Source: Armatimonadota bacterium (lineage in GTDB: Bacteria; Vulcanimicrobiota; JACPDS01). From it: 26,909 nt of DNA. Below, one piece after another: positions 11 through 14,716 of this stretch (within the stretch, counting starts at the first letter, position 1; the number at the start of each line of letters is the position of its first letter). The notes below the pieces were generated by a model. The model searched no databases, was not told the origin of the DNA, and saw nothing but the letters and a program-made list of their open reading frames with translations. Made by a program: the position numbers and the translations under genes. Location of the stretch: the NCBI GenBank assembly GCA_016183885.1, contig JACPDS010000149.1, forward strand, positions 1-26,909. Reading direction: 5' to 3'.

Positions 11-140
11 CCCTCTCCCACCCCGATGCTTCGATCGGGGTAAACGAAGGAGAGAGGGCGTCCCGATGCCGCAAAAGGTTCGCGCTTAGCAAACAGCCTT
101 CAACCATCGGGACTACAATCCTACCCCGCTTGCAGCGGGG
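11..140. repeat. Cluster of nested GC-rich palindromes (REP-like)
   Basis: ACCCCGAT(20-27)/ATCGGGGT(34-41) nested inside CCCTCTC(11-17)/GAGAGGG(52-58); GTCCCGATG(60-68)/CATCGGGAC(105-113); CCCCGCT(124-130)/AGCGGGG(134-140). Confidence 0.75.
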
Positions 141-203: not shown

Positions 204-2186
204 CTATAATAAAGAATATGGATCTACATCTAAATGAAATTTTATCTCTTTATGGAATTTATATTTATCTAAACAATTTTTAAAAATTTCCATATCATTT
301 TTTAAATTATTACTGCGTAAAATAAAATGCCAGCGATAAAAATTATTTATTTTGCCGAAAATACAGGGAGCAGGGCCTGAAAATTTAAATTCTTTTAAAT
401 TTTCTTTTAAAAAATTTATTAAATTTTCACTTTCTTGTTTCACTAATTCGCAATCTTTGGAACTTAAAATAAAATTAACTAATTGCGCAAAAGGAGGAAA
501 ATTAGTTTCTTCTCTTATTTTAATTTCTTCATGATAAAATTTTTGATAATCCTGTAAAGAAGCATTAATAATACAAGAATGTTCTGGGACATAAGTTTGA
601 ATAATTACTTTTCCTGCCGTTCTTCTCCCGGCTCTCCCGGCAACCTGGGCAAGCAATTGAAAAGTCCGCTCCTGGGCTCTAAAATCAGGAAGATTTAAAA
701 TCGTGTCCGCCAGAATAACTCCCACTAAACCTATATAAGGAAAATCCAAACCTTTGGCAATCATCTGCGTGCCAATAAGAATTTTAGCTTCTCCTTTGGC
801 AAATTGGCTTAAAATTTCGTTATGCGAACCCTTTTTTACAGTAGTATCGCGATCCATTCTTAAAATTTTTACTTTAGAAAAATATTTTTTTAATTCTTCT
901 TCCGCCTTTTGAATGCCAAAGCCGCCGTATTTAAATTTAAAGCCTCCGCATTTGGGACAAAGATCGGGCAAATTTTTTTGATAAAAGCAGTAATGACAGC
1001 ATAATTTTCTTAAATCGGCATGATAAGTTAAAGAAATATTGCAGCGCAGACAGCGAAAAACATATCCGCAGCTCCTGCAAAGGATATAATTATGGTAACC
1101 GCGGCGGTTTAAAAATAAAATAACTTGTTTATTTTGATTTAAAGTATTTTCAATTTCTTTTAATAATTTTTCGCTAAAAATTGTTTTTTCTTCGCAGGAT
1201 AAACTAACTATTTCCACTTCCGCTAAAGGATAATTATCAATTCGATGAGGCAGAAAATAATAATGATATTTTTTCTGCATTGTTGAATAATAGCTTTCTA
1301 TTGATGGAGTGGCGCTTCCTAAAACCACTAAAGCGTTATGATAATGAGCCCTTTTAATCGCCACTGTTCTTGCATGATATCTTAAAAAATTTTCTTGTTT
1401 ATAACTGCCGTCCTGCTCTTCGTCAATAATGATTAAGCCTAAGTTGGCAAAAGGCGCAAAAACCGCCGATCTTGTTCCCAAAGCTATATGCACTTTTTTT
1501 TGATTAATCCTCTGCCATTCTAATGCCCGCATATTGTCAGACATTCTTGAATGTAAAACTGCAATATCGCCAAATCTCCCTTTATAACGTTCAACAGCCT
1601 GAGGAGTAAGAGCGATTTCGGGAACCAGGACTATGGCTTCTTTATTTTCTTTTAAACATAAATCAAGTATTTGAAGATAAACTTCTGTTTTTCCGCTTCC
1701 GGTAACGCCGTGCAATAAAAAAACCTCTTTTTTATCCGAAAAGAAAGTTTGAGTGATTAATTTTAAAGCTTCTTCCTGATGATGATTAAGTTTTAAATTA
1801 AAAGTAGCCGGATATATTTCTTTTTTAATTTCTTTATTTAAACTTTCTTTTTTCTTTTTAAAAAAATCTCTTATGGCTCCGGGTAAAACACAATTAAAAG
1901 CATCTCTTAAATTAACTCCGTAATATTTGCTTAAATATTGGATTAAATTTATTAATTCGGGCAAATAATCTGAATTTTGAGGAATGAGTTTAATAATTTC
2001 TTTAGTCTCAAAATCCACTTTCTCGCTAAAACCAACCACATATCCCAAAACGTTAAGATTCCTAAATGGAACCAAGACAACCGTTCCTAATTTAACTTTA
2101 TCTTCTAAATTTTCCGGGATATGATAAATAAAAGTTTTATCAGGAGCTTTTATGTAATTTTCTACTATAATTTCAGCGAATTTCAT
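204..2186 (-). CDS. priA: Primosomal protein N' (replication restart helicase)
   Basis: N-terminal 3'-binding-like segment (TFIYHIP...VLVPFR), Walker A GVTGSGKT, LVPEIALTPQ, DEEQD, LNRRGY, four CxxC Zn motifs, GTQMIAKGLDF, QVAGRAGR, terminal DVDP. Confidence 0.97.
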   Translation of the reverse strand: MKFAEIIVENYIKAPDKTFIYHIPENLEDKVKLGTVVLVPFRNLNVLGYVVGFSEKVDFETKEIIKLIPQNSDYLPELINLIQYLSKYYGVNLRDAFNCVLPGAIRDFFKKKKESLNKEIKKEIYPATFNLKLNHHQEEALKLITQTFFSDKKEVFLLHGVTGSGKTEVYLQILDLCLKENKEAIVLVPEIALTPQAVERYKGRFGDIAVLHSRMSDNMRALEWQRINQKKVHIALGTRSAVFAPFANLGLIIIDEEQDGSYKQENFLRYHARTVAIKRAHYHNALVVLGSATPSIESYYSTMQKKYHYYFLPHRIDNYPLAEVEIVSLSCEEKTIFSEKLLKEIENTLNQNKQVILFLNRRGYHNYILCRSCGYVFRCLRCNISLTYHADLRKLCCHYCFYQKNLPDLCPKCGGFKFKYGGFGIQKAEEELKKYFSKVKILRMDRDTTVKKGSHNEILSQFAKGEAKILIGTQMIAKGLDFPYIGLVGVILADTILNLPDFRAQERTFQLLAQVAGRAGRRTAGKVIIQTYVPEHSCIINASLQDYQKFYHEEIKIREETNFPPFAQLVNFILSSKDCELVKQESENLINFLKENLKEFKFSGPAPCIFGKINNFYRWHFILRSNNLKNDMEIFKNCLDKYKFHKEIKFHLDVDPYSLL

Positions 2187-12863: not shown

Positions 12864-13586
12864 TTAGCCGTTATGCTTTCGTGGAGGCTGTCGGTTAATC
12901 TCCTCCATTAAATCTATCTGAATTCGTTGAATTTCAAGTAAACTTTGCCATTGATGTGTAAGAAGATGGTCTATTTTTTGATGAAGATGGCGAATTTCTA
13001 ATTCTGCTTTAAGATTTATCCGATAATCATGTTCAGCCCTCAAGCGATCTTTCGCTTCTTGTCGATTCTGGCTCATCATAATCACAGGGGCTTGCATAGC
13101 GGCAATACAGGAGAGGACTAAATTTAGCAGGATGAATGGATATGGATCAAACGGCTTCCAGATTAATATAATAGAATTGATAATAATCCACAGCGTGAGA
13201 ATAATGCCGAAGATAATAATAAATTTCCAACTTCCGCCGAAATCAGCAACTTTGTCAGCGATCCTTTCTCCAAATGTTAGTTTGTATTCAAATTCAAGAT
13301 CAACGTTTTTGGAAAGCAATTCTTGCTTTTTTAAGCTTTCGATTACCTCAAAATCTAATGCTGAAAGTTCGCCTTTTTCAACTTCAAGAACATCTTGAAC
13401 ATATTTCGCCCTGAATTGATTAAGACAGGAAATACATATAAAATTATCCGCCGTCCAATCAGGATGTTCTCTTTGAATTATTTCGGCAACTGGACCATGA
13501 ACCACTTCTCCATGCATGATCTCGCCTGAACGCTTTTGCTTTTGGCAAATAGGACAGAGAAAAATCTCCTTATGATTTTTTGTCAT
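12864..13586 (-). CDS. DUF1003 membrane protein (start revised to ATG 13586, 240 aa)
   Basis: TFGERIADKVADFGGSW, FDPYPFILLNLVLS, APVIMMSQNRQ, NLKAELEI; N-terminal CPIC...CISC. The longer ORF start runs into the tRNA remnant; GGAG precedes ATG 13586. Confidence 0.9.
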   Translation of the reverse strand: MTKNHKEIFLCPICQKQKRSGEIMHGEVVHGPVAEIIQREHPDWTADNFICISCLNQFRAKYVQDVLEVEKGELSALDFEVIESLKKQELLSKNVDLEFEYKLTFGERIADKVADFGGSWKFIIIFGIILTLWIIINSIILIWKPFDPYPFILLNLVLSCIAAMQAPVIMMSQNRQEAKDRLRAEHDYRINLKAELEIRHLHQKIDHLLTHQWQSLLEIQRIQIDLMEEINRQPPRKHNG

Positions 13587-13605
13587 ATAACTTATTATCT
13601 CCAAT

Positions 13606-13691
13606 TGGTCGGGGCGAGAGGATTTTCCCGATGCCAATCTTATTGCTATTATGTTTCGGGATCCCGACTATCGTCGGGAGAACCTCCGACC
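13606..13691 (-). pseudogene. Orphan tRNA-Pro 3' half interrupted in the T-loop by a 54-nt palindromic insert
   Basis: Minus strand GGTCGGAGGTTC [13679-13626] AAATCCTCTCGCCCCGACCA; removing the insert gives a canonical variable loop/T-arm/acceptor 3' strand/ACCA. No matching 5' half directly upstream. Confidence 0.8.
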
Positions 13692-13723
13692 TAGTCGATG
13701 CAACATCGGCTCGCGCTATATAA

Positions 13724-13800
13724 TGGTCGGAGTGGGCGGATTTGAACCGCCGGCCTCCTGGTCCCGAACCAGGCGCTCTACCAAACTGAGCCACACCCCG
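13724..13800 (-). tRNA. tRNA-Pro (anticodon CGG), CCA encoded
   Basis: CGGGGTG TG GCTC AGTTTGGTA GAGC G CCTGG TTCGGGA CCAGG AGGCC GGCGG TTCAAAT CCGCC CACTCCG ACCA; 77 nt, complete cloverleaf, C1-G72 and A73 as in tRNA-Pro. Confidence 0.97.
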
Positions 13801-13848: not shown

Positions 13849-14193
13849 TCAAATTAAAGCCAGATGAATTTTTAATTTCATATCAACCTCTTTCATATAT
13901 TCCGTTTTGAAAGTTCCAATTTTATTTTTCAGCCTCACCTTATCAAATGTACATATATCGGGAATCCTTACTAAGCTTTGCCTGTCAAGACAGTTATTTT
14001 TATCGGGTTCAACTATTACGACAATAGGTATTCTTTTTATGTTGCCTGTTAGAGGCACAACTGTTACCTTTGAACCTTTACTATTTGCAATATCATTTGA
14101 GACGATTAATGCCGGCCTCGTTTTTCTGATTTCAGTTCCCATGGAAGGATCAAATTCTGTCAACCATATTTCACCGCGTTTCGGGTAGTTCAC
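13849..14193 (-). CDS. mazF: PemK/MazF family endoribonuclease toxin
   Basis: KRGEIW...DPSMGTEIRKTRPALIVSND; GTG start overlaps the antitoxin TGA (GTGA). Confidence 0.92.
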   Translation of the reverse strand: MNYPKRGEIWLTEFDPSMGTEIRKTRPALIVSNDIANSKGSKVTVVPLTGNIKRIPIVVIVEPDKNNCLDRQSLVRIPDICTFDKVRLKNKIGTFKTEYMKEVDMKLKIHLALI

Positions 14194-14432
14194 TTCTTCT
14201 TATAACTCCTTGCAACATCTTTCAAAGAGGACGATTCATATTCATTCCACCATTCCTTATCATCTTCTTTGCAGAATTTATAATACTCTTCATAAGCCTT
14301 TGCTAAATGTTCTTGCTCTTTTCTTTTTCTGTATTCTTGAAGTATTGTAACAATGGCTTTACTTCGATTCTTTCCCTGTTTATCTAAAAATTCAATCACT
14401 TCTTCTGGCATTGATATCGATATTTTAGGCAT
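14190..14432 (-). CDS. Ribbon-helix-helix antitoxin
   Basis: KISISMPEEVIEFLD...NRSKAI RHH pattern, acidic C-terminus, upstream of and overlapping the toxin; SD AAAGGAGG. Confidence 0.85.
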   Translation of the reverse strand: MPKISISMPEEVIEFLDKQGKNRSKAIVTILQEYRKRKEQEHLAKAYEEYYKFCKEDDKEWWNEYESSSLKDVARSYKKK

Positions 14433-14566: not shown

Positions 14567-14716
14567 GGGGGCTGTCGTCCGAAAAGTCAAATTTAAAATA
14601 TTTATATGCTATATATGATATGGTAGCCGCCCCGATGTAACTTCGGGGCGCTATATATAGTATATTTACGCTCCGATGCGACATCGGAGCGGCTACCCCT
14701 CTTTTGGGCAGCCCCC
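14567..14716. mobile_element. Possible 150-bp non-autonomous element (MITE-like) with imperfect terminal inverted repeats
   Basis: Left GGGGGCTGTCGTCCGAAAAG versus reverse complement of right end GGGGGCTGCCCAAAAG; no credible ORF; no clear target duplication. Confidence 0.45.
14622..14697. repeat. Inverted REP doublet (REPIN-like), GTAG-headed hairpins
   Basis: 14622-14650 GGTAGCCGCCCCGATGTAACTTCGGGGCG and reverse complement of 14669-14697 GGTAGCCGCTCCGATGTCGCATCGGAGCG; 24/29 identical. Confidence 0.75.

Follow-up and report, generated by a model that had tools for sequence, protein, structure and literature searches.

What kind of element divides a tRNA T-loop with two palindromes in tandem, what is the object that it divides, and does the same arrangement recur elsewhere? 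The locus that raises these questions lies in a 26.9-kb window (the whole stretch of DNA analysed) of a groundwater MAG of 1.71 Mb, which is spread over 246 contigs, has a GC content of 31.6% and is 75% complete. A first-pass annotation, made from the letters alone, had placed an insert of two palindromic units in a T-loop on the minus strand, and the sequence reads exactly as it was written there (Table 1).

Table 1 Features of the split tRNA-Pro locus, in the order in which they are read on the minus strand; coordinates are those of the window
Feature	Coordinates	Strand	Remarks
Intact tRNA-Pro(CGG)	13724-13800	minus	ARAGORN; Rfam tRNA, 68 bits
TAGCGCG	13712-13718	minus	Likely leftover of the D-stem 3' strand and position 26; weak evidence, 7 nt only
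19-nt hairpin, AGCCGATG-TTG-CATCGACT	13693-13711	minus	In place of the 17-nt anticodon arm
AGGTCGGAGGTTC	13680-13692	minus	Variable loop AGGTC, T-stem 5' strand GGAGG and T54-T55-C56
Insert (cassette)	13626-13679	minus	54 nt, exact, between C56 and A57 of the tRNA-Pro T-arm
Cassette unit 1	13662-13679	minus	18-nt hairpin TCCCGAC-GATA-GTCGGGA
Cassette unit 2	13626-13661	minus	36 nt: TCCCGA, 24-nt AT-rich interior, TCGGGA
A57-A58-A59-T60 and 3' end	13606-13625	minus	T-stem 3' strand CCTCT, acceptor 3' strand CGCCCCG, discriminator A and CCA follow the four loop bases
DUF1003 gene	12864-13586	minus	Pfam PF06210, E 9e-44; ATG 20 nt past the CCA of the remnant

The two units of the cassette are arranged head-to-tail and meet at the joint GGGATCCC. 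Both are bounded by TCCCGA..TCGGGA ends, that is, by 6-nt inverted repeats, and the direct flanks of the cassette are GGTTC on one side and AAATCC on the other. When the 54 nt are taken out, the flanks agree at 33/33 positions with the 3' part of the tRNA-Pro(TGG) gene that contig C89 carries intact, and a single possible placement of the insert restores GGTTCAAATCC in this comparison. Because one placement alone does so, the cut falls exactly between C56 and A57, and there is neither a target duplication nor damage to or loss from a flank, in keeping with what had been proposed at the outset. A pattern for the complete structure has a single match in the window and none in 100 shuffles. Two familiar identities were considered for the cassette and rejected. 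A MITE would share the inverted ends, which are present here as 6-nt repeats, but no target-site duplication (the MITE criterion) accompanies the window cassette and the flanks rejoin exactly to GGTTCAAATCC without one. A group I or group II intron, already set aside in the annotation, finds no match either, since no Rfam family is reached at gathering score and the insert measures 54 nt where hundreds would be expected. Neither a promoter nor a terminator signal was found at the cassette.

The annotation had also named an assembly artefact among the outcomes that would refute its account. A Logan contig of the public groundwater run X1, built independently, spans positions 13200-13761 at a depth of 5.5 with 0 differences and confirms the junctions. 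X1 and the MAG probably come from the same sample, so that this contig excludes an artefact of binning or of the assembler, not one that is specific to the sample. Three other groundwater runs (X2-X4) contain only the tRNA and mazF parts of the region, and neither an empty-site variant nor the joints were seen in them.

We next turn to the host of the insert. The remnant that carries it starts 5 nt downstream of the complete tRNA-Pro(CGG) and reaches back to the D arm. From the CCA of tRNA-Pro(CGG) to GGTTC there are only 44 nt, so that the acceptor 5' strand is absent along with the greater part of the D arm. Neither ARAGORN nor Rfam detects a second tRNA at the locus, whether in the sequence as it stands or after removal of the 54 nt, and ARAGORN finds none in the insert-free sequence even at a relaxed threshold. 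The split object is thus a non-functional tRNA-Pro 3' remnant and not a tRNA gene. Here the annotation has to be corrected: it had treated the host as a tRNA, but a 3' remnant that adjoins an intact gene could not work as one after excision, and no missed tRNA came to light at the locus once the insert was removed.

The origin of the remnant can be narrowed by comparison with intact genes. Its last 20 nt (13606-13625) are identical at 20/20 positions to the tRNA-Pro(TGG) on C89 (blastn). AGGTCGGAGGTTC is identical to the corresponding part of tRNA-Pro(CGG) in genome G001, and its last 12 nt are also those of the tRNA-Pro(TGG) of the same MAG. TAGCGCG matches tRNA-Pro(CGG) of G001 and of G002 at 7/7 positions and the MAG's own tRNA-Pro(TGG) at 6/7. 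Over TAGCGCG, AGGTCGGAGGTTC and the last 20 bases together, the remnant agrees with tRNA-Pro(CGG) of G001, the only relative in the same order, at 40/40 positions, with the anticodon arm replaced. The window and the tRNA-Pro(CGG) locus of G001 have no gene in common, so that orthology between them is not demonstrable. The neighbouring tRNA-Pro(CGG) was rejected as the parent of the remnant, since the 3' parts match at 27/33 positions, with six differences.

The DUF1003 gene is a neighbour only and lies outside the element. Directly upstream of tRNA-Pro(CGG), a MazF/PemK toxin gene and a small upstream ORF, likely its antitoxin, occupy positions 13849-14432 on the minus strand; the mazF part has 71-76% DNA identity to the family f10 genomes of the phylum and is found in three further groundwater runs. 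Comparison of 20 ORFs of the 26.9-kb window with Pfam brought up housekeeping genes and the MazEF pair, and no integrase, transposase or GIY-YIG gene.

The cassette is not a one-off, an outcome that the annotation itself had named as refuting; it recurs in the same genome on contig C178 and, as described below, in unrelated bacteria. The C178 locus (about 880-1290, minus strand; L065) begins with bases 1-26 of tRNA-Ala preceded by 19 upstream bases and continues with a 19-nt hairpin, AGGTC, a decayed T-stem, TTT and a pair of TCCCGA units, 66 and 29 nt long and placed head-to-tail; the 66-nt unit has a further palindrome nested in its loop. The cassette lies at the T-loop junction of a tRNA-Ala remnant, the same position as in the window, and the 19-nt hairpin has the same borders in the tRNA-Pro and the tRNA-Ala remnant. 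After the cassette come a small GIY-YIG ORF that is broken by a TAA codon and, last, the intact tRNA-Ala(CGC). On contig C239 (13380-13434, minus strand; L034), an intact tRNA-Ser(CGA) has immediately in front of it the first 35 bases of tRNA-Ser(TGA), and the D loop of this remnant is split by 33 bases that make up two hairpins with the joint GGGATCCC. The octamer GGGATCCC occurs eight times in the genome, five times at junctions of TCCCGx hairpins. A scan of genome contigs for a module common to the window and C178, CATCG.CTAGGTC..GGTTYTCCCGA, gave 0 matches.

Short hairpins with GC stems are abundant in this genome in general, where 628 of them, belonging to several families, compare with 67 in a shuffle; there are 11 short TCCCGA hairpins, and some single TCCCGA hairpins have GTAG-like flanks. 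Several further repeats were noted in passing. The stem AGCCGAT/ATCGGCT, which replaces the anticodon arm in two tRNA remnants (window 13693-13711 and C178 around 1227-1245), also forms the variable arm of both intact tRNA-Ser genes (C117 and C239); among the 10 other genomes that gave a tRNA-Ser match, no tRNA-Ser has it. A 52-nt family has four copies (window 61-112, C147, C151 and C176) with the ends TCCCGATG..CATCGGGA of the 19-nt hairpin and 36 extra bases in place of its 3-base loop, which looks like another insertion into a hairpin apex. At 14622-14697, the window holds a REPIN-like doublet of GGTAGCC-headed hairpins in inverted orientation, and similar units are also found on C34, C108, C109, C136, C190, C200 and C203. 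Contig C9 (2150-2225) carries, just after tRNA-Met, a tRNA-like sequence of 67 nt with an acceptor, an anticodon-like arm and a T-arm and without a normal D arm, and C241 (384-415) has an orphan fragment of T-arm and acceptor before a tRNA-Lys cluster; neither of these two contains a cassette.

Beyond this genome, a two-unit cassette with TCCCGA..TCGGGA ends and the joint GGGATCCC sits between C56 and R57 of 3' tRNA remnants at no fewer than 13 other loci. The remnants come directly after intact tRNA genes, and the loci include Kaiserbacteria, Bacteroidetes and nine metagenome contigs. A scan of genomes, with one genome per species and a pattern of GGTTC, TCCCGA, 4-34 bases, TCGGGA and RAWTCC, gave 12 matches, four of which are true T-arms; the other eight lie in coding DNA and were rejected as chance. 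In a Kaiserbacteria MAG from groundwater, a GIY-YIG ORF runs into tRNA-Ala(TGC), and 29 bases further on there is a 3' remnant split between C56 and G57. In three Bacteroidetes MAGs, tRNA-Pro(GGG) is followed by a GIY-YIG ORF of 99 aa and a 40-base repeat of the tRNA 3' end that is split by a 22-nt palindrome. GGATCC is found inside all four true T-arm inserts, though it was absent from the search pattern. A second pattern, in which GGATCC was required, was run on JGI metagenome contigs, and all of its matches (9/9) consist of an intact tRNA and then a split 3' remnant of the same tRNA type. The tRNAs concerned are those for Ala, Thr, Gly, Glu and Pro, the remnants lie 10-321 bases past the intact tRNA on contigs of 33-50% GC, and they are split between C56 and R57 by two head-to-tail units with the joint GGGATCCC. 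At one of these loci (L090), tRNA-Pro(CGG) precedes a remnant with flanks identical to those of the window. The order of the long and the short unit varies between loci, the seventh stem pair covaries between the units (C-G versus T-A), and the remnants at the other loci are decayed. The description of the insert as a tiny palindromic element, which recurs in other tRNA-derived sequences, is supported.

The distribution is patchy. When the two-unit cassette was searched for with a pattern that leaves out the tRNA flank, 400 other genomes of the same phylum as the window gave no match, an absence that speaks for horizontal spread and not for descent. Part of the resemblance between cassettes could be convergent, because the termini TCCCGA and TCGGGA were fixed in the search patterns and hairpin stems with TCCCGA are over-represented in several genomes anyway.

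What the annotation did not see, while its description of the element itself stood, is the link of the cassettes to small GIY-YIG genes: at 9 of the 15 loci examined, a single-domain GIY-YIG ORF of 80-100 aa lies within a few hundred nt. These ORFs were detected with a profile from four local GIY-YIG proteins, and the proteins at cassette loci have a mutual identity of 32-75%. NCBIfam gives generic GIY-YIG matches only, and the nearest sequence in the PDB is that of the UPF0213 protein BH0048. All three small GIY-YIG genes of the MAG flank tRNA genes (C178 and C117), and the only one of them that adjoins TCCCGA units is the broken gene on C178. We considered a general adjacency of small GIY-YIG genes and tRNA genes and rejected it, since in 17/17 relatives the small GIY-YIG genes have no tRNA within 1.5 kb; the link is thus specific to a subfamily. 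Two of these arrangements deserve a separate description. On C117 (1260-1960, minus strand; L023), tRNA-Ser(TGA) stands between two intact small GIY-YIG genes, whose products measure 79 and 85 aa; after the second gene comes an 18-base repeat of the tRNA 3' end, and this gene is bounded by inverted GACTACGC and GCGTAGTC. In a Chitinophagaceae MAG (L042, 3700-4400), GIY-YIG cassettes stand in tandem after tRNA-Pro(GGG), and about 200 nt of unrelated sequence are inserted in the first GIY-YIG ORF.

Copies also occur at sites other than the T-loop. At L086, a second cassette lies in the anticodon loop of the remnant. The unflanked cassette pattern matches seven viral contigs, of which five are related and about 5 kb long (L094 and L096-L099; 52-62% GC) and carry an 18+18-nt TCCCGA cassette with the joint GGGATCCC; in L096 and L099 it stands at the apex of a GC-rich hairpin of the GGGGGGAGAGGGA type. 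No tRNA or GIY-YIG gene lies near the cassette in any of the seven, or anywhere on the five related contigs, and the pattern with T-loop flanks has 0 matches in viral contigs. In one Bacteroidetes MAG (G042), the 22-nt form is present six times, once in a T-loop and five times inside another repeat. Taken together, the D loop on C239, the anticodon loop at L086, the phage hairpin loops and the repeat in G042 indicate that the target is the hairpin apex in general, of which the T-loops of tRNA remnants are a frequent case. The notion of a mobile hairpin that targets the T-loop is therefore upheld in so far as the same T-loop position recurs, on C178 and in unrelated bacteria, and has to be widened in so far as the T-loop is not the sole target.

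On balance, we lean to the reading that what lies in the window is a solo copy, without a nuclease gene, of a selfish GIY-YIG/hairpin module that spreads horizontally, colonises tRNA genes and leaves behind an intact tRNA and a hairpin-split partial copy. The anatomy of the cassette, its exact junction, its recurrence across phyla and its association with GIY-YIG genes have been demonstrated; from these, and by analogy, we infer recognition of the hairpins by the nuclease, a single-stranded DNA substrate, the route of insertion and the order of events. Specifically, the hairpins would be the recognition element of the nuclease on single-stranded DNA, as the NTS hairpin is for SsnA. A tRNA gene, when single-stranded, may fold its arms into GC-rich DNA hairpins with the loops as exposed bases, and the cassette would enter at a loop apex, with the T-loop as the commonest site. 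Repair of the break or template switching could then duplicate or replace part of the tRNA gene, and only those arrangements that keep one intact tRNA would survive. In favor of the solo-copy reading we count the 33/33 match to the empty-site paralogue on C89, the finding that the remnant is not a gene and the GIY-YIG ORFs at 9/15 loci; against it we count the absence of a GIY-YIG gene from the window, the broken GIY-YIG gene on C178, the viral copies without a nuclease gene and the mismatch to the published SRM motif. A broader claim is put forward tentatively, at less than even confidence: the cassettes may represent a distinct class of tRNA-gene parasites, in which a two-hairpin cassette is moved by a miniature Ssn-like single-strand nuclease, lands on folded arms of tRNA genes (above all between C56 and R57 of the T-loop), crosses phyla and passes into ssDNA phages, and persists as its insertion goes with a duplication or replacement that leaves one working tRNA. 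For now, we would not make the finding a new category and would place it with GIY-YIG/hairpin-repeat modules and REP-like nested palindromes. Literature searches that combined GIY-YIG with tRNA, T-loop and palindrome returned no description of hairpin cassettes in tRNA-gene loops beside small GIY-YIG genes.

Other accounts of the locus have to be weighed against the module reading. The cassettes could be ordinary REP- or BIME-like repeats of the lineage, moved by a RAYT or IS200/IS605-type transposase or by slippage and settling in dispensable hairpin loops, with the tRNA remnant serving as free intergenic DNA and the GIY-YIG link incidental. The excess of short GC-rich hairpins over the shuffle (628 against 67), the 11 short TCCCGA hairpins and the GTAG-flanked copies fit this account, as do the lack of a GIY-YIG gene at the window locus, the phage copies without a nuclease gene nearby and the published cases of REPs inside small palindromes (PMC3733652). 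We nevertheless regard it as unlikely: the MAG, at 75% completeness, yielded neither a RAYT nor a Y1 transposase (PF01797), a GTAG head is lacking from the cassette, a GIY-YIG ORF is present at 9/15 loci, and the same two-unit T-loop design is found in other phyla, yet in 0/400 genomes of the same phylum.

Fragments of tRNA 3' ends beside tRNA genes are the classic trace of integration by tyrosine integrases. The remnant might accordingly be what an integrase-driven island, formerly lodged in a tRNA-Pro gene, left behind as an attR-like site, to which the hairpins came later and independently; orphan 3' fragments of tRNA-Ser exist in relatives too. We hold this to be rather improbable, since the remnant, which begins 5 nt past the intact gene, includes sequence as far back as the D arm, no integrase or transposase is encoded among 20 ORFs of the window scanned against Pfam, and the same layout elsewhere accompanies GIY-YIG genes, not integrases. 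A function as RNA, be it as an alternative 3' end of tRNA-Pro, as half of a split tRNA or as a tRNA-like leader that determines where the DUF1003 mRNA begins, would agree with the possible pairing between the acceptor 3' strand CGCCCCG and CGGGGTG, the 5' strand of the tRNA upstream, with the T-stem that is kept in the fold and with the DUF1003 start codon 20 nt downstream. There is, however, no 5' half, no tRNA after removal of the insert, no match to an Rfam family and no promoter or terminator signal, and the unit order differs between loci whose remnants are decayed, which makes such a function very improbable. We give almost no weight to the idea that the junctions are an assembly artefact; the MAG is fragmented into 246 contigs and rich in repeats, but the separately built contig of the public run spans the region without a difference and the same architecture is present in unrelated assemblies.

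Taken by itself, the window teaches a modest practical lesson: what has been split is a relic, and the set of tRNAs for proline is unharmed. If the module reading holds true, the tRNA T-loop ('most conserved 11 bases in biology') would be a landing site, shared across phyla, for a mobile element of a few dozen bases. Such an element would account for many of the orphan tRNA fragments, and of the tRNA remnants in tandem, that uncultured bacteria carry, and for some of the tRNA calls missed by gene finders. It would also give Ssn-type single-strand nucleases a second biological setting besides transformation in Neisseria, and natural pairs of nucleases and hairpins could offer new specificities for single-stranded DNA tools.

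Several known systems share one or more of these traits. Thermoproteales archaea have non-canonical tRNA introns, in the T-loop as well, which are short, are thought to be mobile, lie within complete genes and are removed at a bulge-helix-bulge by the splicing endonuclease. They resemble the cassette as short insertions at positions of tRNA genes other than the anticodon, whereas the host here is a bacterial remnant unable to yield a tRNA. The SDR4-6 repeats of Nostocaceae, said to have been described by Elhai et al. in 2008, are reportedly mobile repeats of about 21-27 nt that have no known enzyme, insert precisely and nest in one another; they differ from the cassette in sequence and in host group, and we know of no link between them and tRNA loops or GIY-YIG genes. 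SegB, a free-standing homing endonuclease of the GIY-YIG type, is encoded within the cluster of tRNA genes in T-even phages (PMC13096335). Here too a GIY-YIG gene lies amid tRNA genes and brings about rearrangement of the region, but SegB has no known hairpin cassette and is not known to leave split tRNA remnants. SegB is also the larger enzyme and acts on double-stranded DNA.

REP, BIME and REPIN sequences come closer, being short extragenic palindromes that are clustered and nested and have no target duplication (PMC3733652; Bertels and Rainey 2011, PMC3116915), and insertion of REPs into the center of other palindromes has been reported (Di Nocera et al. 2013, PMC3733652). In contrast to these, the cassette is without a GTAG or CGTC head and is flanked by GGTTC and AAATCC. 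REPINs are reportedly inherited vertically within lineages, whereas the cassette is patchy across phyla.

The closest counterpart is one that the annotation missed when it stated that it knew of no named element class, namely the Ssn nucleases with their NTS/SRM hairpins (PMC11893778). The SsnA protein of Neisseria meningitidis, 94 aa long, has GIY-YIG as its single domain and binds the NTS hairpin only as ssDNA; its cut falls a few bases upstream of the NTS, which consists of TTCCCGCG..CGCGGGAA with oriented flanks (Chenal et al. 2025, PMC11893778). The ssnA genes are typically flanked by hairpins as NTS-ssnA-NTS, a layout like that of an insertion sequence (PMC11893778). A hairpin-flanked single-domain GIY-YIG gene of this kind is absent at the window locus and present at 9/15 loci, including C178, and the published SRM search motif (PMC11893778) fits a single site in the whole genome, which is not the cassette. 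In the Ssn system, the gene for a protein of about 90 aa with a single GIY-YIG domain has hairpin repeats with GC stems on its flanks, of 20-30 nt and the type TTCCCGCG..CGCGGGAA; the comparable genes at cassette loci lie near GC-stem hairpins of the type TCCCGA..TCGGGA. The repeats of the Ssn system are dispersed in the genome and recognised as ssDNA (PMC11893778), and by analogy the hairpins of the cassette may be recognised in the same way. tRNA is never mentioned in PMC11893778, whereas here a two-unit cassette lies inside the loops of tRNA-gene remnants. We thus take the Ssn nucleases with NTS/SRM hairpins to be the nearest system described, to which the cassette module would be related but from which it appears distinct.
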